Below, piece by piece: positions 2,842-54,051 of a DNA stretch of 54,836 bases. The stretch is from Clostridia bacterium (GTDB lineage: Bacteria; Bacillota; Clostridia; Christensenellales; UBA1242). Each line of letters begins with the position of its first letter. Position 1 is the first letter of the stretch. A program made the position numbers and the translations under genes. The notes below the pieces were generated by a model, which did not search any database, had not been told where the DNA came from, and was given only the letters and a program-made list of their open reading frames with translations. The stretch covers positions 1 through 54,836 of the forward strand of contig CAWVLM010000038.1 of assembly GCA_963930145.1 (NCBI GenBank), given 5' to 3'.

Positions 2842-5364
2842 ATGAGTGCAACGGCAATAGGTTGGATTGTATCTATTATATTTGTAATAATCTTAGTGAT
2901 AGGCTTTTTTGTGGGCTTTTGGCGTGGACTTAAAAGGTCGACAGCAAACCTTGTGTTTTCTGTTATTGGCATAATAGTTGCCTTTTTTGTAACACCAGTA
3001 ATTACAAACGCCATTATGGGCATACAGATTGATAATAATGGCAAGCAAGTCTCACTTAGTCAGGCGATAATAGAAGCACTAAAAGAAGATGAAACAATTT
3101 CAGCTATCATCACAAGAAATCCGAGCATGGAATCCTTTATAGAAGCCCTGCCTGCCGCTCTTGCAAATGTGGTTGTATTTCTTTTGGTGACCTGCGTTAT
3201 AGAGCTTTTGATATATATTGTTTACAGAATAATTGCATGCTTCACATTTAAAACTCAAGAAGGCGAAAGCAAACATCGCTGGTGGGGAGCAGGTGTTGGA
3301 CTTGTAAAGACCTTTCTTCTCACAATCTTTGCTTTTATGCCGCTTGCTGGGCTTGTAGGGGTGTATGGAACAGCAAAAAACAGTAATGAAATGTTTGTCA
3401 CAAACAGCGAAGTGACGGCAAGCTCTCTTCTAGACGAAGTTCCCCCAGAAGTTGATGAAATTTTGACAGGACTTGAGAATAATGCTCTTATCAAAATCTG
3501 TGGAATTTTTGGACTAGATAACGCAACTTTTGACTATTATTCACAAGTAAAGGTTGACAGCAACACAATATATCTACGAAAAGAATTAAAAAATCTTTAT
3601 CCTATTGCTAATATGACCTATCAAATTGTGAAAACCGATGAATATATAACTTTTAATGATGTAGATTACGATAAACTTGAAAAGTATGTCAATAATTTTA
3701 CTGAAGGTGGACTATTTAAAGGGATTATAGTGGACCTTGCAAATGATATTATTCAAAATTATCAAGAGTATCCATTTATCTCTAAAAGCGAAAATTTATC
3801 ACAAATTCAAGAGATTTTAGCTCCAATTCAAACAAAATTACAAGAATATTCACAAAATCACGACATGCTTGAGCAGTATTTTACACATGATGTGAAATAT
3901 ATCTTCCAAACAGTAAAGACTGCTGCTCAAAATGGTATCATAGATGAAATTATGTCAATGCCACAAACAACCACGCTTGAACATGTCATTGACACACTGA
4001 CAAACGATAAAAATATTGTGGCGACCGAGACTACTCTTTCAAGCGTGCTAGATATCAACCTTGTTCGAGACGCTATAGCACCGCTTACCGAAATGCTACT
4101 TGATGAAGTAAAACAAAGCGTTGAGCTTGAACCGATATCAGTTGACACAAGCTCATGGGGTGAGCAAGATTGGGATAAGCTTTCATCTTCGGTTGTAAAT
4201 GTTCTTAAAGATTATAGCGACCTATCAGACCAAGTAGATATTATAGGCGTTGTGGAAGACCCTAGCCTTTTGATAAGTGATGAAAGCATTGATATTGAAA
4301 ATATAACATCTTCTCTTGGCAAACTTTTAGATGAGGCAAGGTCGATAAAATTATTCTACAATGCAAACGATGAGTCAATAATAGATAATCTTCTTGCAAA
4401 TTACAATATTTCGCTTCCAGATTCAGCGGTATTTAACGCAGAAGGACAGGCTGTTGAAATTGAAAATTATAGCGAATTATTTGAATTTATCACGCCATCT
4501 CTGACAAAAATCAAAGAAAATAATCTCTATGACGTGTTGAATAATTCTCAAGATACTTTAACTCTTATGAGCCAGCTCGCCGAAGTTTTGTCACAAGATG
4601 GCAAAGAAAACCTTTTAAGCGAGATAGTGCTTCCACTTTCTCAAGTTGAGCCAACTAAGACCTTTGTGGTTGAAGAGATGTTGCAGACAATACAAAATAA
4701 TGTTGTAGACTTTACGGCTTTGACTAGTTATCAAGATTGGAAGAATGATTTAGGTCAAATCTCAGACCTTCTTGTAACGCTTAATTCACTCACTCTTGAA
4801 GATGTCACATATCTAGAGCTTGCCATAAATGGAGATGTACAATCTATTATAAATAATCTCACAGAAGTTAGTCTTGCAAGCGTTGTAAAACCAGTGCTTT
4901 ATGCAAAATCAACTTCGTCTTTGAGAGATGAGCTATTTACCTCTATCACCGATGTCGTTGACGGAATAACTTCTGTTACAAATACAATAGACCTAAGCGG
5001 TATAACCTTAGCTCAAAATAACAGTGAAGACCAAGCAGACGAAATTTGCAATATTCTTGCAGACTTCTTAGAACTTAATAAGGTCTATAGCGAAGGCATG
5101 GGCTTAAGAGATATTGATAAGACTCTTCTTGGAGAGTTCTTAACCAGCATGCAACAAAATGCTTACAGGCAAACTCTTCTAGCTAAACAAGAAGCGGGTG
5201 CCTTTAAGAGCGTTTATGACAACATTCTTACAACCATAAAAACAGAATATCAAGATGTAATAGCTCTTTCAAGCGACCTTCAACAGATGCTTGACGAAGA
5301 AAACTATCCATATATTGATTTTACAGCACTCTTTGATTTGATAGCTGAACTTGAAAGTTTATAA
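2842..5364 (+). CDS. Large membrane protein: CvpA-like multi-TM N-terminus plus a ~650-aa acidic helical region of unknown function
   Basis: AAAGGAG RBS 8 nt upstream. Hydrophobic segments in the first ~200 aa resemble the colicin V production (CvpA) fold. The remainder has no motif I recognise. The stop lies just before the rsmH start. Confidence 0.7.
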   Translation: MSATAIGWIVSIIFVIILVIGFFVGFWRGLKRSTANLVFSVIGIIVAFFVTPVITNAIMGIQIDNNGKQVSLSQAIIEALKEDETISAIITRNPSMESFIEALPAALANVVVFLLVTCVIELLIYIVYRIIACFTFKTQEGESKHRWWGAGVGLVKTFLLTIFAFMPLAGLVGVYGTAKNSNEMFVTNSEVTASSLLDEVPPEVDEILTGLENNALIKICGIFGLDNATFDYYSQVKVDSNTIYLRKELKNLYPIANMTYQIVKTDEYITFNDVDYDKLEKYVNNFTEGGLFKGIIVDLANDIIQNYQEYPFISKSENLSQIQEILAPIQTKLQEYSQNHDMLEQYFTHDVKYIFQTVKTAAQNGIIDEIMSMPQTTTLEHVIDTLTNDKNIVATETTLSSVLDINLVRDAIAPLTEMLLDEVKQSVELEPISVDTSSWGEQDWDKLSSSVVNVLKDYSDLSDQVDIIGVVEDPSLLISDESIDIENITSSLGKLLDEARSIKLFYNANDESIIDNLLANYNISLPDSAVFNAEGQAVEIENYSELFEFITPSLTKIKENNLYDVLNNSQDTLTLMSQLAEVLSQDGKENLLSEIVLPLSQVEPTKTFVVEEMLQTIQNNVVDFTALTSYQDWKNDLGQISDLLVTLNSLTLEDVTYLELAINGDVQSIINNLTEVSLASVVKPVLYAKSTSSLRDELFTSITDVVDGITSVTNTIDLSGITLAQNNSEDQADEICNILADFLELNKVYSEGMGLRDIDKTLLGEFLTSMQQNAYRQTLLAKQEAGAFKSVYDNILTTIKTEYQDVIALSSDLQQMLDEENYPYIDFTALFDLIAELESL

Positions 5365-6358: not shown

Positions 6359-7096
6359 ATGGAAGAGAAGACCTTACTTGCTGAAATAGAAAAAGAGCAA
6401 AAGAAAAAGATAGAAGAGAAGTTTTTAGAGCAGAAAGGCAGCATTCCAAGTGAAAGTGCAAACAAGACGCTGTCTAAGCCTGAAACAAAAGAGCAGGGCG
6501 AGCAAAAGCGTTCAAAGCCAAATTCAAGCGTTTTTTCATCAAAAAACCTTCAAAATACCGCTCTTGCCGAGAAACTTGAAAAAAAATATAGAGAACTTAG
6601 TGGCGAGCAACTAGACGAGACTGAAGAGCTTGTTTGCCAAACAGAAGATATAGAAGAGCAAACTTTATCAGCAGGTAAGTCTACTATAATCGAAAGACCG
6701 AACTATGATTTTATAGAAGAGCTATCATCCGAGCAGCGTGACAAGATATTTAAAATAGAAAAGCCCGAAACAAAAAGCGAAACCAAACCTAAAACAAACA
6801 AACTTAGAAACATTGTGCTAGCTTTATTATTTTTAATCTTTGGAGTATGGGGTATAATAAATATCGCAACGCTTGATTCGCTAGGCAGCCAGATAAGTGA
6901 CATTTCAACAGAGTATGATATGAATTTGATATCTTATCTCAACAATCTACACAATCTAGATGCCACAAACAGCGAAAACATGGAAAATCTTTTCCAGACA
7001 ATCCCAAAAGACGAAGTTCCACCAAACTCAATCGGGCAGCAATCAAATTGGTTTGATAGATTTTGTAATTTCATAGCAGGGCTGTTTGGAGGCTAG
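6359..7096 (+). CDS. Bitopic membrane protein in the FtsL position of the division cluster (long K/E-rich cytoplasmic N-terminus)
   Basis: Single TM (LRNIVLALLFLIFGVWGIINIA) near residue 150. Sits between rsmH and the class B PBP, where ftsL normally lies. The call rests on position and topology only. Confidence 0.55.
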   Translation: MEEKTLLAEIEKEQKKKIEEKFLEQKGSIPSESANKTLSKPETKEQGEQKRSKPNSSVFSSKNLQNTALAEKLEKKYRELSGEQLDETEELVCQTEDIEEQTLSAGKSTIIERPNYDFIEELSSEQRDKIFKIEKPETKSETKPKTNKLRNIVLALLFLIFGVWGIINIATLDSLGSQISDISTEYDMNLISYLNNLHNLDATNSENMENLFQTIPKDEVPPNSIGQQSNWFDRFCNFIAGLFGG

Positions 7097-7098
7097 TC

Positions 7099-9000
7099 TT
7101 GCAAAAAAAATTCACATTATTTTCATTAAAGAAAAGGATATTAGCAATTCTCTTGGTAATATCCTTTATTTTTTGTGCCTTAATCGTCAGATTATTCGTT
7201 ATACAGGTGATAAATGGCAAAGATTTACAGCTTAGAGCGACCGACCAGTGGACAAGAGACCTTTCTATAGTTGCGCCACGTGGCAGTATATACGATACCA
7301 CAGGTTCAACGCTTGCTGTCAGCTATACAACTTATAATGTCTATGTCAGAGCAAGGGAAGTCATGTCTATAAGCAAGGTCGCATCCGTTTTGTCGCAAGA
7401 ACTTGATTTAGATTTTTCTTCAGTTTATCAAAAAATTAGCAATAGAAATGTCAGCGAAGTGCTGGTAAAAATGCAGGTTGACGGCGAGATTGCAGAGGCT
7501 ATATACAACCATAAACTTGACGGCGTATACTTAGCGGAAAACAGCGATAGATACTATCCAAACGGCAACCTTTTAACGCAGGTGCTTGGCTTTATCAGTA
7601 TAGATAATGTCGGTCAAACGGGCGTTGAAGCATATTATAACGATGTTTTAAGCGGCACTGACGGCTATAGCTATGTCCAAAGTGACCTTCAAGGCAAGGA
7701 GATAGGAGGAAGTTTAAGATACTACTATCCAGCAACGGCGGGCAATAGCTTAACCTTGACGATAGATAGTAAGATGCAACTTATACTTGAACAGGTGCTT
7801 GAGCAAATTATGGAAGAGCAGCAGGCAAAGAACGTTTCAGGGCTTATCATGAATGCCAAGACAGGAGAAATTTTGTCTCTTTCAAGTAAGCCTAGCTTTG
7901 ACCTTAACGATGTGCCACGCGATGACCTTGAAACGCTCTTTGATCAAAGCCGAATAAAACTTGTAACCGATATATACGAGCCAGGGTCTACTTTTAAAAT
8001 ATTGACAGTTGCCGCCGCACTTGAAGCGGGTGTATGCAGTTTAGACGACACTTTCTATTGTCCAGGCTATAGAATTATAGACGGCGAAAAAATCAAATGT
8101 TGGAAAACAATAGGGCATGGAACGCAAACTCTTGCGGAAGCCTTTTCTAATTCATGTAACTGCTGCTTTATGGACCTTGCCCTTAGACTTGGCGTTGATA
8201 GATTCTATGAGTATATGGAAAAGTTCGGACTTGGTCAGCAGACCGGCATAGATATCTCAGGCGAAGGCAGCGGAATGCTTATGGCAAAATCTCAGGTCAG
8301 AACGGTGGACCTTGCTCGTATGGGCTTTGGTCACGCGGTTGCTCTCACCCCAATTCAGCTTTTGACTGCCGTTGCCTCTATCATAAATGGCGGCACTTAC
8401 AACGAGCCACATTTGTTATCTTCAATCACTGACACCACAAGCGGTGAAACACAAACAATAGAAAGCAGTGTCAGGGCAACGGGGGTTGTCAGCAGCGAGA
8501 CGTCTCAAACAGTCAACTACCTTCTAGAACTTGCAGAAAATAAGACGGGCAAATACACCTTTGTTGAAGGCTACAATGTTGGCGGCAAAACGGGAACAGC
8601 ACAGAAATATAGTGAAAGCGGCGGGATTGCTCAAGGTAAATATATTTCGAGCTTTATAGGAACCTATCCGGCGGATGACCCAGAATATATTGTATTTATC
8701 ATGGTTGACGAGCCAAGTGCTGGTGCCTATTATGGAAGCATCGTTGCCGCACCTTATGGCAAGATAGTTTTTAGCAATCTGTTTGACTATCTCAACGAGC
8801 CTAAACAGGATGAAAACGTGAAAGTTGAGTATGTAGAAATGCCCAATGTTGAAGGCTTAAGTCTAGCAGATGCCGCAGTTGCCTTAAAAAATCTAGGCTT
8901 ATACTATGAGCTTGACGGCGAAGGAGAGTATGTTACTAGGCAGCTTCCGCCTGCTGGCACAAGTATTCAAGTTGGCACAAGCGTTGTTTTGATAACCTAA
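7099..9000 (+). CDS. Class B penicillin-binding protein (PBP2B/FtsI type) with one C-terminal PASTA domain
   Basis: N-terminal TM. STFK, SNS and KTGT transpeptidase motifs. PASTA-like tail (VEMPNVEGLSLADAAVALKNLGL...). TTG start 6 nt after a GGAGG. Confidence 0.9.
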   Translation: MQKKFTLFSLKKRILAILLVISFIFCALIVRLFVIQVINGKDLQLRATDQWTRDLSIVAPRGSIYDTTGSTLAVSYTTYNVYVRAREVMSISKVASVLSQELDLDFSSVYQKISNRNVSEVLVKMQVDGEIAEAIYNHKLDGVYLAENSDRYYPNGNLLTQVLGFISIDNVGQTGVEAYYNDVLSGTDGYSYVQSDLQGKEIGGSLRYYYPATAGNSLTLTIDSKMQLILEQVLEQIMEEQQAKNVSGLIMNAKTGEILSLSSKPSFDLNDVPRDDLETLFDQSRIKLVTDIYEPGSTFKILTVAAALEAGVCSLDDTFYCPGYRIIDGEKIKCWKTIGHGTQTLAEAFSNSCNCCFMDLALRLGVDRFYEYMEKFGLGQQTGIDISGEGSGMLMAKSQVRTVDLARMGFGHAVALTPIQLLTAVASIINGGTYNEPHLLSSITDTTSGETQTIESSVRATGVVSSETSQTVNYLLELAENKTGKYTFVEGYNVGGKTGTAQKYSESGGIAQGKYISSFIGTYPADDPEYIVFIMVDEPSAGAYYGSIVAAPYGKIVFSNLFDYLNEPKQDENVKVEYVEMPNVEGLSLADAAVALKNLGLYYELDGEGEYVTRQLPPAGTSIQVGTSVVLIT

Positions 9001-14734: not shown

Positions 14735-15229
14735 ATGACTATTATCAAAAAGATGCAAAAAGGACTTAAAGTTGCGGGCTTATCCCTTTTTCTTGGACTA
14801 GGTTCAATTTTAATTGCAACAGGAGTTGGCTGTGCAATAGGTTCAGCCGCAGTTGACGGCCGATCAAAAGCTGAATTTTATGCTTCAGAAAACTATGAAC
14901 AGTTAGAAGGGCAACAAACAACAGAAAGTGGAAGTGATACTCTTAATGAGAATTTATATTATTCTTCTAAAGACCCAGCTGTTGTCAAAGACCGCCAAAC
15001 AGTGCTTGTACTTGCCGTGACAAGTGGGCTGACTATTTTAACGGGGGTCGGGGTTGGTGTTGGAAAAGGCGTTGCAAGCTTAACGGGCATGGAAACTACG
15101 CATGAAACCATCATTGATGAAATAAAAGATACAATAAAAGAGATAAAAGAATCATCGCCAAACAAGAAAAGAAAAAAGAATATTTTTGAGGCAGAAGAAC
15201 GCCGTTATAATACTATTGAAAGATATTAA
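14735..15229 (+). CDS. Small membrane protein (two hydrophobic, Gly-rich segments; K-rich tail)
   Basis: The ATG at 14735 has an AAAGGAG RBS 7 nt upstream; the listed ORF start at 14711 lacks one. Confidence 0.6.
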   Translation: MTIIKKMQKGLKVAGLSLFLGLGSILIATGVGCAIGSAAVDGRSKAEFYASENYEQLEGQQTTESGSDTLNENLYYSSKDPAVVKDRQTVLVLAVTSGLTILTGVGVGVGKGVASLTGMETTHETIIDEIKDTIKEIKESSPNKKRKKNIFEAEERRYNTIERY

Positions 15230-15240
15230 AAAGATAAAAA

Positions 15241-15275
15241 AGATGCAAAATATTTATTTTTGCATCTTTTTTTGA
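15241..15275 (+). terminator. Intrinsic terminator
   Basis: AGATGCAAAA-TATTTAT-TTTTGCATCT followed by T7. Confidence 0.7.
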
Positions 15276-15361
15276 TAAAAATCATTAAAATTTTCGATTT
15301 TTTTGATAATTTTTATATTTTTTTGATAAAAAATTAAAATTAAAATATAAAAATATCAAAA

Positions 15362-16954
15362 TTATTTTTTGCTATTTTTTTCAAGCCAAGCCATATATTC
15401 TTCATAAGTTCCTGTGAAGTCATTATAGTGATTTTCATCTATAATATCAATAATTCTGTTTGCAACCGTTTCTATTATTTCTTGGTCGTGTGTTGCAAAC
15501 AAGATATTGCCACGGAAGGCTTGCATGCCTTTATTTAGTGCGGTGATACTTTCAAGGTCAAGGTGGTTTGTAGGTTCGTCTAATATCAAAAGATTGCCTT
15601 GTTCAAGCATCATTTTTGCAAGCATACATCTCACTCGTTCTCCACCTGAAAGCACATTTGCAGGTTTAAGATTCTCTTCACCAGTAAAAAGCATACGTCC
15701 TAGCCAACTTCTTATATATGTTTCATTTTGGTCTTTAGAAAATTGTCTAAGCCAGTCCACAATCGAGCTTGTATTGCCTTCAAAATATTCGTTGTTGTTT
15801 TGTGGCAGGTTTGTGACTTTTATAGTCTTTCCAATAAACACGTTGCCGCAGTCAGGTTTTTCTTTTCCTAAGATAATATTGAATAAAGTGGTTAAAATTT
15901 GACTATTTTTTGCAAAAAAAGCCACTTTTTGCCCTTTTTCTATATTAAAATTCAATTTTTTAAACATTCCAGCCTTGCTTAATCCTTCAACTTTCAACAC
16001 TTCTTTGCCAATTTCTTGAGTGTATTCAAAGTTGATATAAGGGTATTTTCTAGAAGAAGGTTTAATATCCTCAATAGTCAATTTTTCAAGTTCACGCTTT
16101 CTGCTTGTTGCTTGTTTTGATTTAGATGCGTTTGCAGAGAAACGTGCAATAAATTCCTTAAGTTCTTTGGCTCGCTGTTCGGCTTTTTTGTTTTGGTCTT
16201 TCATCTGACGAAGAATAAGTTGACTTGACTCATACCAGAAATCATAGTTTCCAATATACATATTGATTTTACCATAGTCAACGTCACAAATATGCGTGCA
16301 GACCTTGTTTAAAAAGTGACGGTTGTGAGAGACAATGATAACAATATTTTCAAAGTCTAACAAAAATTCTTCAAGCCACCTTACGGTTTTAAAGTCAAGG
16401 TTGTTTGTTGGTTCATCTAAAACAAGGATGTCAGGGTTGCCAAAAAGTGCTTGTGCAAGCAAGATTTTAACCTTTTCTTTAGGGTCAACGTCTTTCATTT
16501 GGACATAAAACAACTCTTCGTTTATCCCAAGATTTTGAAGAAGAGTTTTAGCTTCGCTTTCCGCTTCCCAGCCGCCAAGCTCGGCAAATTCAGTCTCAAG
16601 CTCGCCAGCCCTTATTCCATCTTCTTCAGTAAAATCAGGTTTTGCATAGAGTGCATCCTTTTCTTTTTGAACTTGCATAAGTCTTTTGTGCCCGAGAAGA
16701 ACACAGTCAAGCACAGTTTCATTATCATAGGCATTTTGGTTTTGTGCAAGCACGCTCATTCGCTCGCCAGGAGTGATAAAAATTTCGCCAGTGTTAGGCT
16801 CAATTTCTCCCGTCAAGATTTTAAGAAAGGTGGATTTTCCTGCACCATTAGCCCCAATTATTCCATAACAGTTACCTTTTGTGAACTTTAAGTTTACATC
16901 TCTATAAAGCACTCTTCCGCCAAACGCCAAAGACACATTGCTCACTTGTACCAT
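15362..16954 (-). CDS. ABC-F family ATPase, YbiT-like (530 aa, two NBDs, no TMD)
   Basis: Intact NBD1 Walker A (GANGAGKS). Walker B LVLDEPTNNLD and LILDEPTNHLD. LSGGERVR signature. Overall N-terminal pattern matches E. coli YbiT as I remember it. The NBD2 P-loop is degenerate (see findings). Confidence 0.88.
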   Translation of the reverse strand: MVQVSNVSLAFGGRVLYRDVNLKFTKGNCYGIIGANGAGKSTFLKILTGEIEPNTGEIFITPGERMSVLAQNQNAYDNETVLDCVLLGHKRLMQVQKEKDALYAKPDFTEEDGIRAGELETEFAELGGWEAESEAKTLLQNLGINEELFYVQMKDVDPKEKVKILLAQALFGNPDILVLDEPTNNLDFKTVRWLEEFLLDFENIVIIVSHNRHFLNKVCTHICDVDYGKINMYIGNYDFWYESSQLILRQMKDQNKKAEQRAKELKEFIARFSANASKSKQATSRKRELEKLTIEDIKPSSRKYPYINFEYTQEIGKEVLKVEGLSKAGMFKKLNFNIEKGQKVAFFAKNSQILTTLFNIILGKEKPDCGNVFIGKTIKVTNLPQNNNEYFEGNTSSIVDWLRQFSKDQNETYIRSWLGRMLFTGEENLKPANVLSGGERVRCMLAKMMLEQGNLLILDEPTNHLDLESITALNKGMQAFRGNILFATHDQEIIETVANRIIDIIDENHYNDFTGTYEEYMAWLEKNSKK

Positions 16955-37210: not shown

Positions 37211-37318
37211 TATTTCAATGTGTTTAGCGTTGTTCTTTTAAGTTAATTTAGAATTTGTAAGGTTTATATGAAATATTTGCAAGTGAATCACAATGGCTAA
37301 ATTTGTATGCATACTATA

Positions 37319-37414
37319 CACGCGAATGGGAGAGCTTTTTGTAAACCAAAAAGCTCTCCAAAAGGCACAAAAGTGCCTTTTACAAACTCTCGCGAGAGTT
37401 TGTTCATTCGCGTG
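37319..37414. other. Four-way-junction 'cloverleaf' module A (96 nt)
   Basis: A 10-bp outer stem encloses three contiguous hairpins of 12, 9 and 11 bp. Pairings were verified base by base (see findings). Confidence 0.7.
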
Positions 37415-37490
37415 CAAATTTTTATAAATAACTACTATATAATATTCATTAAAAAAATTTAAAAATTTTTAAAAAAATTGTTAAATTTGC

Positions 37491-37518
37491 TTGACACGCG
37501 TTGCGGGGGGGGTAAACT
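37491..37518 (+). promoter_or_regulatory. Promoter with a G8 tract in the spacer
   Basis: TTGACA (37491-37496), 16-nt spacer CGCGTTGCGGGGGGGG, TAAACT (37513-37518). Confidence 0.5.
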
Positions 37519-37524
37519 AATAGC

Positions 37525-38035
37525 ATAAAGATAGTCGCCGTATGGCGACTATCGCGAGCGGCGAGCCAAATGCTCGGCGGCCGATAGGTTGAGTTAGAAA
37601 AATAAAACCTTTTCCGCTCTTTTGAAACAGACAAAATTAGATGTTATGTATGTACTATACGATAGAAAGTGGCTAAGCCACCAAACATCTAGTTTTCCGC
37701 GAGTGTGAGAAGGCACGTGTTGTTTTGCATTTTGCAGAACAACACAGAAGGCAAAAACTTTTGCCTTTAAAAAACATATAGTTTTTTGTGCCTTCTCATG
37801 CTTGAAGCTCGCTCGAAAATGTTGGCTACCTAGTTGTTAAGCACTTAAAAAGTGTGACATTTGTCACAGTTGAAAATTTTTTTAAAAATCTTTAATTTTG
37901 TGACGTCATCGTGCCGTCACCCTTGAGACAAAGGGGTTACGAAAGTGCTAGAATATGACTAAGATATGCAAAAAAGGTCGAATTTTGCATAAAACTATAG
38001 CGTTTAAACAAAATAAAGAAAAATCTAAAATTTAA
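37525..38035 (+). ncRNA. Candidate large structured RNA or highly structured 5' leader of the DUF6273-like gene
   Basis: About 510 nt with no credible ORF, packed with perfect hairpins and multi-branch junctions, and richer in GC than other intergenic DNA here. Strand is inferred from the promoter only. Confidence 0.4.
37706..37798. other. Four-way-junction 'cloverleaf' module B (93 nt)
   Basis: 11-bp outer stem TGAGAAGGCAC/GTGCCTTCTCA enclosing hairpins of 12, 8-9 and 7 bp. Confidence 0.7.
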
Positions 38036-38049
38036 AAGGAAGGTAAAAA

Positions 38050-39408
38050 ATGAGTCTTAAAATCAAACTTATGTCAGCAATTTCAGCATTTATCTTAGTG
38101 CTAAGCATGCTGCTCGTTGGAGTTTTGGCAGCAACGCAAACGATTAACCTTAAAGGAACAGTAAACTTTAATGTTTCAGATTCAACGTTATATCTAAAAG
38201 ATATGCGTATTCAAACTGAGAGTACAGGGCAAGATAGCACAGCTGATAATTTTATGCCAGGCTTTATTAGTGGAGAAATAGATATAAATTTAGGCACAAT
38301 TTCTTCATCAAGTGGCTCAGTCAATATATACTTTGACTTTGTAAATACCACTTCAACAATGTATCAAGCTTCGCCAACAGGCGGCAGCGGAGTAACCTTA
38401 TCAACAAGTGGAATGATAGCGGGCTCTCAAGTTGCAATTGGAGACGTTACAACAGCAGATATCTCAGGCACAATAATTTTAACAATACAATTCACTGGCT
38501 CAAGCAGCGTTGATTTAGATGGAATATCAATCTCGTTTAATGAATATTCGCCATACGAGAGAGTAGATGCAGATGACAATCCAGATCCAAATGGAGATTA
38601 TCTATACTTTGGATATTACCCGCAAACAATAAAGACAGCAGATGTTACAGTTGGCTCAGCTCCAGAATCAAATGGCTATTATTTAGGTAGTGACGGAGAA
38701 TATTATGCAAAAGTCTCAGCAAACCCTTTTGACAGTAATTATACCTTTTCAGATGGCACTACAATAGTTTCAGGCACAGAATATTATTTTAAAGTTGAAC
38801 CTTTAAGATGGCGTATTTTAGATGATGCCTATGGTGATGGAACAGCACTTATTGTATGTGATTCAATAATAAATGCAATGTCATTCCAATCACAAGTTAA
38901 GAATAATGAAGATGATGGATATAACTACGTCATAGATGATTCAGGTGAATATATATTAGATAAAGATGGAAATAAAGTTTACGCAAATAACTATGAGTAT
39001 AGCGAAATTAGAGCGTATTTAAACAATGATTTCTATAACAGTGCGTTTAGTAATGGAGAACAAACAATCATTGTTACAACCGAAGTTGATAATAGTTTAG
39101 AATCAGCTGGCGTTATGAGTGATCAAAAATACATTTGCAATAACACTTATGATAAAGCATTTTTATTGAGCTATGCAGACATTGAAAATTATGGGTTGCA
39201 TCCCCAACTCTCAGGAACATTTGATTTTATAACAAGTGATTATAGTCGTGCTTCAGGCATAATTATGGAAGTGAGATACCAACCATTAGGCGTAGGGCGT
39301 TCATACACACGTTCACCTTTTGGTTATGAATACGGAGGAAATTATGGATTAGATGTGATTTCCGTATCAGGGGGGCTACTGGGAATTCTTCAGCAAATTC
39401 CAACTTAA
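38050..39408 (+). CDS. Secreted DUF6273-like protein (W-L-R-S-P type module), C-terminus probably frameshifted at a G6 tract
   Basis: AAGGAAGG RBS. Signal peptide MSLKIKLMSAISAFILVLSMLLVGVLAA. LRWRILD ... YTRSP module. The expected family tail is in the adjacent frame (see finding). Confidence 0.8.
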   Translation: MSLKIKLMSAISAFILVLSMLLVGVLAATQTINLKGTVNFNVSDSTLYLKDMRIQTESTGQDSTADNFMPGFISGEIDINLGTISSSSGSVNIYFDFVNTTSTMYQASPTGGSGVTLSTSGMIAGSQVAIGDVTTADISGTIILTIQFTGSSSVDLDGISISFNEYSPYERVDADDNPDPNGDYLYFGYYPQTIKTADVTVGSAPESNGYYLGSDGEYYAKVSANPFDSNYTFSDGTTIVSGTEYYFKVEPLRWRILDDAYGDGTALIVCDSIINAMSFQSQVKNNEDDGYNYVIDDSGEYILDKDGNKVYANNYEYSEIRAYLNNDFYNSAFSNGEQTIIVTTEVDNSLESAGVMSDQKYICNNTYDKAFLLSYADIENYGLHPQLSGTFDFITSDYSRASGIIMEVRYQPLGVGRSYTRSPFGYEYGGNYGLDVISVSGGLLGILQQIPT

Positions 39409-42723: not shown

Positions 42724-42760
42724 AAAAAAGCAAGCACTATATATAGGTATAGACGCTTGC
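42724..42760 (-). terminator. Terminator of the tRNA-Arg transcription unit
   Basis: Minus strand: GCAAGCG...(internal TATAG/CTATA)...GCTTGC followed by TTTTTTG. Confidence 0.5.
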
Positions 42761-42773
42761 CATGCATACTATA

Positions 42774-42895
42774 TGGTGCGTCGCAAGGGGTCGACGCGTT
42801 AAGAAAACTTGGCGGTGTCCAAGTTTTTAGCAAAAGACGGGTGAAATTAACTTTCACCCCGCCGGAACGGGCGAACCTTGGTTCGAATCCCTTAA
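42774..42895 (-). other. Unassigned ~120-nt structured element ending in a tRNA-Arg-derived acceptor mini-helix + ACCA
   Basis: Minus strand carries hairpins CGAACC/GGTTCG, GGGTGAAA/TTTCACCC and AAAACTTGG/CCAAGTTTT, then GCGTCG-ACCCCTTG-CGACGC-ACCA. It lies between tRNA-Arg and the terminator. Confidence 0.45.
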
Positions 42896-42920: not shown

Positions 42921-42997
42921 TGGTGCGTCGCAAGGGATTCGAACCCCTGACCTTTCGTTCCGTAGACGAACGCTCTATCCAGCTGAGCTAGCGACGC
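42921..42997 (-). tRNA. tRNA-Arg (anticodon ACG), CCA encoded
   Basis: Reverse complement GCGTCGC-TA-GCTC-AGCTGGATA-GAGC-G-TTCGT-CTACGGA-ACGAA-AGGTC-AGGGG-TTCGAAT-CCCTT-GCGACGC-A-CCA folds as a canonical cloverleaf. Confidence 0.95.
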
Positions 42998-49070: not shown

Positions 49071-49091
49071 AAATTTTTGGGTCTTTTTTTC
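49061..49091 (+). terminator. Intrinsic terminator after the GT2 gene
   Basis: AAGACC-T-AAA..TTT-G-GGTCTT followed by T7. Overlaps the stop codon. Confidence 0.65.
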
Positions 49092-49151
49092 ACATTTTAA
49101 CCTTATATGTTTTATATTGATAATAGGGGAAGTGCGAAAAAAGGGACAAAA

Positions 49152-50717: not shown

Positions 50718-50813
50718 TTAAAAAATCCAACAAGACAATAAATTATGCAAAGTTTGTATTTACTTTAGCGAAAAAGTGTTGTATAATATAAAAAATTAAA
50801 TTTGGGTGGTTAT

Positions 50814-52814
50814 ATGAAATTTATGAAAATAAAAGAAAAAGAAATTTCCACAAATAATTTTATTTTACCATTTTTATTTATAGTTTTTGCTATAATTTTT
50901 GAAATGGTCAATTTTTTATATATTGGTTTTAAAGATGTTGATGGCAACTTGATGGTTTTGCCAACATATTTTTTATTTGATTTTGCCATAATTTTAATGC
51001 TTGCAGGGCTAATTTATGTTGTGCATAACAAAATAATCATGCAAATATTATACTATTTTTTGTTATTTGTGCAATGTGCTTTAAATATAGCAAATTCTAC
51101 GATGTATTATATCTTTGGTGATATCTTATCTTTTGACCTATTCTATTTAGGCGGCGAAGCAACGTCAGCTATCACTGTAGATGTCATCGATTGGGGTGGA
51201 GTATTCCTAAATTTTGGTATTTTTGCTCTAATAGTTGCAATTTCAGTGGTGCTAGTAAAGAAAAATAAAAAGACCGTTACCATCAAAAATTTTTCTATGC
51301 CGTGCATAGTTCTCTCAGTGGCAATTTTATGTTGGTCTATGGGTTTAGGCTTATATGAAACACAGGCAATCACCCTTGCCGATGCACAGGCAGGGCAATC
51401 AGAAATAGAAAGCAGTGATAAATATCTATGGGACAATTTCCAATTCAAGCTTGACGCCTTTGAAAAGTTTGGACATTATGGGTTTTACACAAAAAGCGTG
51501 CTAAATCTTATATTCCATGACGAAGTAACAGAAAATGATATAGAATACTATCAAAATTTTATAGATGAAGGCTATCACGAAGAAGACCCAACCGCACCAC
51601 TATATGGCGACAACTTAATTATAATCTTATGTGAAAGTATGGACTGGTTTGCAATAGACCCATACAACACTCCAACGCTATATTCTATTGCAACTGGCAA
51701 CAATTCAATATCTTTCACAGGTTTTCATGCAAGAAATAGAACTAATAACAGTGAAGGTATTGTTCTAAACGGCTCAACACCTAGAAATATGTCAGTTTCA
51801 GCTGCCTATGATAACGGTTACACCTTTGACTATGCACTTCCTAAGCTATTTAAGTCTACAAGTCACGGCGAAGATGTTGTTGCAATTTACACCCATCAAA
51901 ACAGCAGCAGCTTCTATAATAGAAACGTCACGCACACACTGGGATTTGGCTTTGATGAAATGTATATGAATGAAGCATATACAGGTGAGCAGTCAATAGG
52001 TGCTTGGGGTGAGTGGATGAGCGACCTTGATTTTACTAAAAATGTGATAGACGATATTTTGCCGACAAATCAAAGATTTTTGACCTTTTTCACATCTTTA
52101 GCATCACATGGGCCTTATACATACAGAAATCCGTACTACGAAGAGTATTATCAAATTCTTGATGAAAATTATGAAAAATACATGGAATGGTATCAGACTG
52201 AAACAGATTATGTTATGCCAACAGGCAATGACTTTGAACATTTGTATTATTATAAAGCAGCCTTTATCGACCTTGACCGCACTGTTGCAAATATGATTGA
52301 AGAACTTGAAAAACGCGGACTTAGTGAAAATACATCGATTTTATTCTTTGCCGACCATAATGCCTATTATCACGATTTGAGTTTGAAGCTTAAAGGCATA
52401 GACAAAGCAGATTTTTATGATACCTATGCATATAACATTCCGCTTATGCTTTATAGTCCAAAACTAACAAAAGAGAGCGGCGGACAGATTATTGATACGT
52501 TCTGTAATACCTACGACGTTCTGCCTACTATTTGTGACCTATTTGGTCTTCCATACAACTCAAATCTTATTTATGGCTATTCTATTTTCTCAGAAGAAAT
52601 AGAAAATTCCTTCTTTGTCTCACACTTAAATGGAATGTTTAATGAAGATATCTATAGTTTAAATATAAGCGATATCTATATCGTAGGCGAAGATGTCACG
52701 GATGAAGATATTAAAAAATTTAAGCGTAATGCAAATAGATTCTATAAACGCCAAGCTGAACTTGAAATTATCTACGAAAATGGCATAAATGGAACAAGAA
52801 AACTTGTTTCTTGA
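50814..52814 (+). CDS. LtaS-family (sulfatase-fold) lipoteichoic acid synthase / phosphoglycerol transferase
   Basis: Five N-terminal TM helices followed by an extracellular alkaline-phosphatase-superfamily domain (LCESMDW, FFADHN). TATAAT at 50782-50787. TGA stop. Confidence 0.8.
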   Translation: MKFMKIKEKEISTNNFILPFLFIVFAIIFEMVNFLYIGFKDVDGNLMVLPTYFLFDFAIILMLAGLIYVVHNKIIMQILYYFLLFVQCALNIANSTMYYIFGDILSFDLFYLGGEATSAITVDVIDWGGVFLNFGIFALIVAISVVLVKKNKKTVTIKNFSMPCIVLSVAILCWSMGLGLYETQAITLADAQAGQSEIESSDKYLWDNFQFKLDAFEKFGHYGFYTKSVLNLIFHDEVTENDIEYYQNFIDEGYHEEDPTAPLYGDNLIIILCESMDWFAIDPYNTPTLYSIATGNNSISFTGFHARNRTNNSEGIVLNGSTPRNMSVSAAYDNGYTFDYALPKLFKSTSHGEDVVAIYTHQNSSSFYNRNVTHTLGFGFDEMYMNEAYTGEQSIGAWGEWMSDLDFTKNVIDDILPTNQRFLTFFTSLASHGPYTYRNPYYEEYYQILDENYEKYMEWYQTETDYVMPTGNDFEHLYYYKAAFIDLDRTVANMIEELEKRGLSENTSILFFADHNAYYHDLSLKLKGIDKADFYDTYAYNIPLMLYSPKLTKESGGQIIDTFCNTYDVLPTICDLFGLPYNSNLIYGYSIFSEEIENSFFVSHLNGMFNEDIYSLNISDIYIVGEDVTDEDIKKFKRNANRFYKRQAELEIIYENGINGTRKLVS

Positions 52815-52873: not shown

Positions 52874-52974
52874 ATGTCTAGCAGCGTACGTCTTTTGCAA
52901 TGCAAAAGCCGTCAAAACGCTTTTCAAGCGTTTTTGCAAGCATAGCCATGCTTGCCGCTGCTAGACATTTTTTA
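52874..52974. other. Four-way-junction 'cloverleaf' module C (95 nt) plus a T run; may also serve as the terminator after the LtaS-family gene
   Basis: 13-bp outer stem ATGTCTAGCAGCG/CGCTGCTAGACAT enclosing three hairpins of 7-11, 9 and 8 bp, followed by TTTTT. Confidence 0.7.
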
Positions 52975-53019
52975 TAAGCCAATTTTAACACAATATAGCT
53001 TTTAAGAATATAAAATGTT

Positions 53020-54051
53020 ATGTTCTCAAAAATATATATAAACAGCACAAATTTAATTCACAATGTTGAAAAACTTGAAGAAATTGCTGCACACAAGATA
53101 TGCGTGATGATAAAGGCAAATGCCTATGGGCATGGCATGAAAGAAATTCTCTCTATTTTAAATGATAAGGTTGACTATTTTGGCGTGTCAAACCAAAGTG
53201 AAGGCCTGCTTGCGAAGAGATATACAAAGAAGGATGTAATAGTGTTCGGTGCCTGCGAAGATTATCGGGTTTGCATGCAAAATGATGTTTCTTTTGCACT
53301 TTTTTCATATTTAGACGCAAAAAAGATAGCAAAAACAGCAAAAAAATACAACTTAACACCCAAAATGCATCTTTGTTTAAACACTGGCATGAATAGGTAT
53401 GGTGTTAAAACCGAGAAAGAGCTTCAAAAGATAATCACTTTTTTAAAAAAGCAGGGCTTGTCTCTTGCAGGAATCTATACTCATTTCTCTTCACTAACAA
53501 CTGATAGAGACTATACTGAAAAACAAAAAGAAAAGTTTTTTAGATTTATAAAACATATTCCTAAGGAGTGGCAAACGATAAAGCATGTTGGCGGCGGGCG
53601 AAGCATCTTTGAAAAACTTGATGTTGATATGTTTAGAGTAGGGCTTGAAGTGTATGGCTATGGCAACGAGTTTGTCAAGCCTGTCCTTTCAGTTGAAAGC
53701 ACGATAGTTGATATTCAGCAGGTAGATAAAGGCGAACATGTCGGCTATCTCTGTGGTTATACCGCAGAAAAAGATATCACCGTTGCAGCCATTCCGCTAG
53801 GCTATGGTGATGGGCTGCCACGGAAACTTTCAAATAAGCTAATAGTATCAATAAGGGGAAAAGAAGCAAAGGTAACAGGCAATATCTGCATGGACGCCTT
53901 TATGGTAGATGTCTCTGATAATAATTGCAAGATAGGCGATAGCGTTATGATAATGAATAATGCGTCCGCTCTTGCTCCGCTTATTGAAAGCACAGAATAC
54001 GAGGTTCTCACAAATCTAGCTAAGTTTAGGGGAGAGCGAGTTATAGTTTAA
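53020..54051 (+). CDS. alr: Alanine racemase
   Basis: VMIKANAYGHG (PLP lysine), IPLGYGDG, and NICMD near the C-terminus. Confidence 0.9.
   Translation: MFSKIYINSTNLIHNVEKLEEIAAHKICVMIKANAYGHGMKEILSILNDKVDYFGVSNQSEGLLAKRYTKKDVIVFGACEDYRVCMQNDVSFALFSYLDAKKIAKTAKKYNLTPKMHLCLNTGMNRYGVKTEKELQKIITFLKKQGLSLAGIYTHFSSLTTDRDYTEKQKEKFFRFIKHIPKEWQTIKHVGGGRSIFEKLDVDMFRVGLEVYGYGNEFVKPVLSVESTIVDIQQVDKGEHVGYLCGYTAEKDITVAAIPLGYGDGLPRKLSNKLIVSIRGKEAKVTGNICMDAFMVDVSDNNCKIGDSVMIMNNASALAPLIESTEYEVLTNLAKFRGERVIV

Follow-up and report, generated by a model that had tools for sequence, protein, structure and literature searches.

The window, by which we mean the whole stretch of 54,836 nucleotides analysed, has a G+C content of 35% and belongs to a lineage known only through MAGs of uncultured gut Clostridia. 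Near its right-hand end, an LtaS-family (sulfatase-domain) gene and the alanine racemase gene alr follow one another on the + strand, and the spacer between them holds a compact structured element, here called copy C, which begins 59 nt past the LtaS-family stop (52814), lies on the same strand and ends 51 nt before alr. Copy C comprises 95 bases (52874-52968) and folds into a 13-bp outer stem around three hairpins, followed by TTTTT. The features of the locus are as follows:

50802-52814, + strand, LtaS-family gene, 670-aa ORF (Pfam Sulfatase, E = 1.9e-25)
52874-52886, + strand, 5' arm of the outer stem, ATGTCTAGCAGCG
52887, 52913 and 52935, linkers of copy C, one nucleotide each
52888-52912, + strand, hairpin H1, 10 pairs with one T.C mismatch, loop AAT
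52914-52934, + strand, hairpin H2, 9 pairs, AAAACGCTT / AAGCGTTTT, loop TTC
52936-52955, + strand, hairpin H3, 8 pairs, GCAAGCAT / ATGCTTGC, loop AGCC
52956-52968, + strand, 3' arm of the outer stem, CGCTGCTAGACAT
52969-52973, + strand, T5 run, candidate U-tract, abutting the outer stem
53009-53014, + strand, TATAAA, probable -10 box of alr, 5 nt before the ATG (read from the sequence)
53020-54051, + strand, alr (Pfam Ala_racemase_N and Ala_racemase_C)

The coordinates that a sequence-only reading of this DNA had given for the stem, hairpins, linkers and T-run all agree with the sequence, and the cloverleaf that it proposed is reproduced exactly by RNAfold, in the minimum free energy (MFE) and centroid structures alike. 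All 13 pairs of the outer stem are Watson-Crick pairs (7/13 G-C), and closing this stem adds -21.5 kcal/mol to the three hairpins. The MFE of copy C is -49.5 kcal/mol compared with -25.1 +/- 3.2 kcal/mol in 200 dinucleotide shuffles (z = -7.67), none of which was as stable; DNA parameters give the same fold (z = -8.3), as does the minus strand. In a sliding scan of the whole window, the only multi-branch folds of this type were copy C and two others, A and B (-49 to -58 kcal/mol), and the best three-branch fold in eight block-shuffled windows reached -29.8 kcal/mol. The cloverleaf of copy C is confirmed as real and lies far beyond chance.

A consensus terminator scan of the LtaS-family/alr spacer finds no ordinary hairpin terminator, bearing out an earlier claim that none follows the LtaS-family gene, and the same scan does not call copy C. 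Nor does a consensus promoter scan find a promoter-like site in the spacer, and a promoter belonging to copy C itself was rejected because the scan shows none upstream. Judged from sequence, alr probably has its own promoter and possibly a leaderless mRNA, which makes a terminator upstream of it plausible. In nearly all relatives (L001-L032), TATAAT or a near-variant (TATACT, TATAAA, TACAAT) occurs within the last ~10 nt before the alr ATG, the conserved hexamer standing 4-5 nt from the start codon.

An RNAfold-based family scan of the window and 63 related loci (L-numbers below), covering about 1.2 Mb, found the same architecture at roughly 15 independent loci, with a density of roughly one cloverleaf copy per 20 kb. 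The members, several with orthologues in more than one locus, are:

A, window 37319-37414, + strand, outer stem 10 bp, hairpins 13, 9 and 9 bp, 41 Watson-Crick pairs and no G-U
B, window 37700-37804, + strand, outer stem 17 bp including 3 G-U, hairpins 13, 9 and 7 bp, 5 G-U pairs in all
C, window, L001, L038 and L002, with a distant group, C2, in L010, L041 and L032 (seven orthologues)
D, L001, L002 and L003
E, L004
F, L006 and L007
G, L008
H, L010, L041 and L032
I, L014
one copy after the MBL-fold gene, L054-56 (L054 11299-11399)
one copy, L061 (11220-11305)
X1 and X2, two copies, L063 (7891-8006 and 8222-8340)

In all members the outer stem is 9-17 bp long and closes exactly three simple hairpins, each of 5-15 bp; 0-4 junction nucleotides are unpaired, and the total length is 86-119 nt, with about 40 Watson-Crick pairs. 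Versions with two or four hairpins did not appear in the family scan under the same filters, and no member was found in about 290 kb from more distant relatives (alr identity <= about 65%). The stems are almost entirely Watson-Crick (41/41 pairs in A, 40/40 in C, 49/49 in G); G-U pairs are absent from most copies and number about 12 in roughly 660 pairs family-wide. Closing the outer stem is worth -12 to -27 kcal/mol among the members, and each putative coaxial stack, taken as the sum of its helix lengths, measures about 19-24 bp. A presence/absence polymorphism of H between L010 and L032 was rejected; L032 carries H with a damaged outer stem, a copy that the scan had missed.

The sequence-only reading had placed A and B 15 kb from C (measured, about 15.1-15.5 kb upstream) and had taken the three for copies of one dispersed family. 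A dispersed family there is, with about 15 loci in related genomes, but A, B and C are not sequence copies of one another: their architecture is common and blastn-short and a repeat search detect no similarity, so that a sequence repeat family of A, B and C was rejected. Sequence is hardly shared between family loci in general, and the traces that do occur are few. C and D reach a local score of 36 against a null maximum of 28, with the 3' arm of H2 and H3 in common, and H2 of C resembles H2 of the non-orthologous D in L001 (AAAAAGCG ttc CGCTTTTT); a GACTTGC-type outer stem is common to E, X2, F and G, which lie at four different loci. This weak paralogy suggests a REP/MITE-like dispersed origin of the family, whose modules probably spread long ago by duplication or transposition and are now held in shape locus by locus. 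A D19 match at 6502-6538, which falls within an ORF, was taken as chance. In the spacer that follows the MBL-fold gene there is one cloverleaf in L054 and L061 and there are two in the window and L063, all unlike in sequence; in its H2 and H3 the L054 copy has likenesses to B (AGGCAAA, AAAAAAC) and to H3 of A (AAACTC). On a 1.2-kb contig that holds the 225-aa gene, no element follows that gene.

Within the set of seven C orthologues, a run of at least five T directly past the stem is present in all seven. Between the window, L001 and L002, whose alr genes are 83-89% identical, the element is 71-78% identical, compared with 53-59% in both flanks and 70-85% in neighbouring coding DNA; copy C, in other words, is preserved about as well as coding DNA between relatives, and its flanks have decayed. 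All four helices are retained through compensatory changes. RNAalifold, applied to six orthologues spanning C1 (the C orthologues of the window group) and C2, predicts 29 pairs, in 12 of which both sides have changed in a compensatory manner; in the same six-sequence comparison 6/9 aligned pairs of H3 have changed on both sides with pairing retained, and the pairing of H1 is kept in this way in L001, L002 and L010. A CTAG.AGC core of the outer stem is common to C1 and C2, including L010 and L032, and the loops and single-stranded parts vary. Wobbles in the diverged orthologues (two each in L001, L002 and L032) are G-U on the + strand and reduce the stability of the minus strand, while L038 has one A.C mismatch of the opposite polarity. 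Many of the compensatory changes are transversions without a wobble intermediate. L001 and L038 differ at two positions inside the element, and are 100% identical in the upstream flank and in both CDS samples and 96% identical in the downstream flank.

The position of copy C can be compared with what relatives carry at the same boundary. Between the LtaS-family gene and alr there is nothing in L003-L009 and L011, a canonical terminator in L013 and L027, and a cloverleaf with a T-run in the carriers of C1 and C2. Similarly, at the boundary between a glycosyltransferase gene and a ZIP transporter gene, the window and L001 have a simple hairpin and T7-8 before a conserved (GT)CACATTTT motif, and L008 has cloverleaf G and T8 before the same (GT)CACATTTT motif. 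At two gene boundaries, then, a cloverleaf with a T-run stands in the place that a canonical terminator has in relatives. Given that relatives have an ordinary hairpin terminator at its position, copy C most likely ends LtaS-family transcription, and we give a probability of roughly 0.5 to its acting, in the + strand RNA, as a branched intrinsic terminator that also provides the LtaS-family transcript with a stable 3'-end cap. The + strand polarity of the G-U pairs, of which B too has five, and the invariant T-run of the orthologues likewise point to use as RNA.

In the proposed mechanism, RNA polymerase leaving the LtaS-family gene would transcribe the 5' arm of the outer stem, after which the three hairpins would fold in turn and draw this arm beside the emerging 3' arm. 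The 13-bp outer stem would then zip directly ahead of the U5 tract, creating the geometry for transcript release, and the released 3' end would be a compact, perfectly stacked four-way junction that should withstand 3'-to-5' exonucleases and insulate alr. Folding of a nascent-RNA prefix of copy C predicts that the three hairpins form and that the 5' arm stays essentially free. What the analysis shows is the structure, its conservation, the compensatory changes, the family and the equivalence in position to ordinary terminators; transcription through copy C, its termination, the stabilisation of the product and any function of the four-way junction in members that do not terminate are inferred.

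Copy C resembles an intrinsic terminator in having a G+C-containing stem followed at once by a conserved T/U run, in its location just past a stop codon on the coding strand, in keeping its pairing while its sequence is free, and in being interchangeable in position with the ordinary terminators of relatives. It differs in that a canonical loop measures about 3-10 nt, whereas the stem of copy C closes a 69-nt insert with three hairpins and a four-way junction, and in its stability of -49 kcal/mol, compared with -8 to -14 kcal/mol for the ordinary terminators of this window, which are simple hairpins; moreover, about half of the cloverleaf family is without a U-tract. The likeness to REP/BIME/REPIN elements, some of which act as terminators or mRNA stabilisers, is that both are extragenic, structured palindromic modules found at 3' ends and between genes and are lineage-specific. 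REPs, however, are imperfect hairpins of 20-40 nt with a strong consensus, hundreds of copies and a RAYT transposase, whereas the cloverleafs have no common consensus, a fixed four-helix fold and no transposase among the genes checked (18 flanking genes searched with Pfam, in genomes seen as fragments). MITE-like repeats (Correia/NEMIS, ERIC/IRU, pneumococcal BOX, RUP) have a similar size of about 100-150 nt and terminal inverted repeats, as which the outer stem of C could count; they are intergenic and co-transcribed, and can terminate transcription or be processed. Those families, in contrast, are recognisable by sequence and have target-site duplications, and the cloverleafs have neither and keep perfect pairing in orthologues over long divergence. 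No target-site duplication borders C or G, and a TTTAT that flanks C in the window was rejected as one because it is absent in L001 and L002. Copy C thus falls outside both the simple-hairpin criterion of canonical terminators and the sequence-consensus criterion of REP/MITE families.

Comparison with other known elements gave a similar outcome. Rfam 15 has nothing at gathering score for C, the A/B region or L063, and matches in E-value mode are far below threshold. ARAGORN and Rfam find a single tRNA or tmRNA in the window, tRNA-Arg at 42921-42997, and a tRNA-like element was rejected in view of the lack of a model match and arms of 8-13 bp. A phage or plasmid origin was rejected as well, blastn against phage and plasmid collections having returned no relevant match. 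The t-elements of plant mitochondria are tRNA-like structures at mRNA ends (PMC1920247), and share with the cloverleafs the idea of a cloverleaf-shaped non-tRNA structure that defines transcript ends at gene boundaries; they differ in that they derive from tRNAs and that RNase P and RNase Z process them, while the arms here are about twice tRNA length, match no tRNA model and occur in a bacterium. Integron attC sites have a conserved structure and variable sequence at gene boundaries too, but an attC consists of one imperfect hairpin, carries extrahelical bases and conserved R boxes, lies next to an integrase and forms arrays, none of which is seen here; the attC core (GTTRRRY) and bulges are absent from C, whose neighbours are LtaS and alr. 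A retron would share the outer stem, but the flanks are a sulfatase-family gene and alanine racemase, with no reverse transcriptase. Our literature search found no description of a cloverleaf or four-way-junction terminator or repeat family. The four-way-junction modules among which copy C is counted lie at gene ends and in intergenic spacers and make up a family that is fast-evolving, apparently undescribed and restricted to one clade of uncultured gut Clostridia.

For the family as a whole, termination is not the defining role. A T-run is missing from both sides of B, E, F, I and the L061 copy, and a canonical terminator precedes A, the L054 copy, F in L006, H and I; for A it is the ordinary terminator of the MBL-fold gene, about 110 nt away. 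Member B stands between a poly-G promoter-like site and a DUF6273 ORF; D has a housekeeping gene on each side, both read in the same direction, and the next ribosome-binding site is 12 nt away from it. The L054 cloverleaf, which does have a T-run, is placed between two ordinary terminators of convergent genes. About half of the members are without a T-run or behind an ordinary terminator, which argues that the four-way junction has another role or none, and probably only a part of the family, namely members that have a T-run (for example C, C2 and G), serves as terminators.

The main rival, an explanation at the level of DNA and possibly selfish, would take the cloverleafs for REP/MITE-like nested palindromes that spread through intergenic 'safe' sites (3' ends, convergent genes), with termination incidental and the arms kept up by intrastrand template switching, by arm-to-arm correction during replication or by cruciform-related selection. 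In the folding models, the almost purely Watson-Crick stems and the identical folding of C on both strands and as DNA fit such palindromes at least as well as RNA. As many compensatory changes are transversions without a wobble intermediate, their pattern could also be explained by one-step arm-to-arm template switching, a process documented to create and maintain hairpins (PMC8794818). Little transcription is expected behind canonical terminators, where many copies lie; presence at the same site is patchy among relatives, and the paralogy signals described above, both that between C and D (36 against 28) and the GACTTGC-type stem of E, X2, F and G, agree with spread as DNA, as do the two L001/L038 differences within an element whose flanks are nearly identical. 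Rearrangements, too, occur next to the elements: A/B, E and X1/X2 have the DUF6273 cassette as a neighbour, F has a 270-nt indel at its side, and the 5' arm of X2 shows tandem partial duplications. We nevertheless consider this explanation unlikely for copy C, given the lack of target-site duplications, of a linked transposase in the regions seen and of common sequence between A, B and C in one genome, the conservation of the element at the level of coding DNA amid decaying flanks, the strictly fixed three-hairpin architecture, and the G-U polarity and invariant T-run that point to RNA. More tentatively than for the branched terminator, we entertain as a possible, if doubtful, reading that the cloverleafs form a new class of structured module, a perfect four-way junction with free sequence and a fixed shape (an outer stem around exactly three hairpins, no nucleotides at the junction), kept by a clade-specific factor that would recognise RNA or extruded or single-stranded DNA; such modules could double as terminators, as insulators, and as hotspots or landing sites in the turnover of gene modules, among them the DUF6273 surface-protein module with its poly-G promoter. 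In an alternative version, cloverleafs may form by insertion into terminator hairpins.

A perfect four-way junction whose two coaxial stacks would measure about 20-22 bp, read in RNA by RNase III, another double-strand-specific nuclease or a clade-specific protein would set mRNA ends or half-lives, for which the t-elements offer a precedent (PMC1920247). The fixed architecture with free sequence and unconserved loops, the two putative coaxial stacks of about 19-24 bp each and the presence of members without a T-run inside transcription units (B in a leader, D between co-directional genes) are all consistent with such processing or binding. The elements, however, have none of the internal loops or conserved nucleotides typical of RNase III or RNase P substrates; with ARAGORN and the Rfam tRNA model negative and G-U pairs scarcer than is usual under RNA-only selection, we regard this role as improbable. 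It is very improbable, in our estimate, that the cloverleafs are stand-alone small RNA genes with their own promoter and the T-run as terminator. The L054 cloverleaf and its T-run would belong to neither mRNA, as they lie between the two canonical terminators of convergent genes, and a strong promoter-like site (TTGACA-16-TAAACT) stands upstream of B, but there is no promoter-like site upstream of C and none that convinces for A or L054, Rfam gives no match, and loops and single-stranded parts are unconserved among orthologues, leaving no seed for base-pairing. We hold it equally remote that the cloverleafs serve recombination or replication as folded single-stranded DNA, attC-like or similar to a single-strand origin. 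Conserved structure with free sequence would suit such a site, as would the cloverleaf at the 5' edge of the DUF6273 module, which occupies different loci in the window and L063 versus L004; against this, a GTTRRRY-type core, extrahelical bases and a nearby integrase or Rep gene are all absent, housekeeping genes adjoin C, D, G and H, and the elements occur one by one, without forming cassette arrays.

If copy C does act as a branched terminator, intrinsic terminators can rest on a stem that closes a folded four-way junction, a form that terminator predictors miss and that matters for operon annotation in uncultured gut Clostridia. The family offers a clean example from nature of a shape that is conserved while the sequence is free, with almost no wobble; it could help to separate RNA-level selection from the upkeep of palindromes in DNA by template switching, and may point to a clade factor that reads four-way junctions. 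Stable, compact and sequence-programmable terminator/insulator modules would also be useful parts for engineering low-GC Firmicutes.

Several further observations concern the surroundings of the cloverleafs. A TTGACA-16 nt-TAAACT site, whose spacer includes eight consecutive G (seven in L004 and L063), precedes a signal-peptide DUF6273 gene at three places:

window 37486-37518, promoter-like site, and 38050-39408, DUF6273 ORF
L004 ~3405-3440, promoter-like site, and 3852-5189, DUF6273 ORF
L063 8641-8672, promoter-like site, and 8750 onward, DUF6273 ORF

In the window and L063 this module of promoter and DUF6273 gene comes after the MBL-fold gene, and in L004 it comes after a helicase gene, always with a cloverleaf upstream; the DUF6273 proteins of the window and L004 are 36% identical (E = 2e-71). 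The run of G in the spacer suggests a surface protein subject to phase variation by strand slippage. In L063, positions 8090-8222 hold two extra tandem partial copies of the X2 5' outer arm and the start of H1 (ACGAGGCTTGCAGAAGATAC...) with a period of about 62 nt; they lie directly upstream of the complete X2 and look like slippage or abortive duplication at the structure. Past cloverleaf F there are one to three tandem repeats of ~77 nt (L006 6334-6620, L007 11892-12040), downstream of an F420-0:gamma-glutamyl-ligase-family gene, each of which could encode a peptide of ~22 aa on the minus strand, e.g. MRTFDIIIKFYSSLLKNALNEE. L006 also has a ~270-nt insertion with a canonical terminator between the upstream gene and F, which is absent in L007 (alr 96% identical).

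Upstream of the ZIP-family transporter gene, and past the terminator of the gene before it, the window (49089-49140) and most loci have a conserved (T)TCACATTTT ... TATATTGATAATAGGGG(A/C)AGTGCG block, which has no Rfam match at gathering score and may serve in metal regulation as an operator or a leader motif; the mechanical ORF start of the ZIP gene at 49107 is probably overcalled. At 15117-16043, adjoining the tRNA-Arg region, L056 has a rolling-circle Rep gene (PF23343 REP_ORF2-G2P) where L054 and L055 have RNase HII, and this region is probably a small integrated ssDNA phage or plasmid. Finally, the motif ATG(C/T)AT(A/G)(C)ACTATA(C/T) occurs three times in the window, just upstream of A (37306-37320), some 40 nt ahead of B (37646-37662), where it falls within a smaller three-way fold at 37632-37697, and near a structured stretch beside tRNA-Arg (42758-42775).
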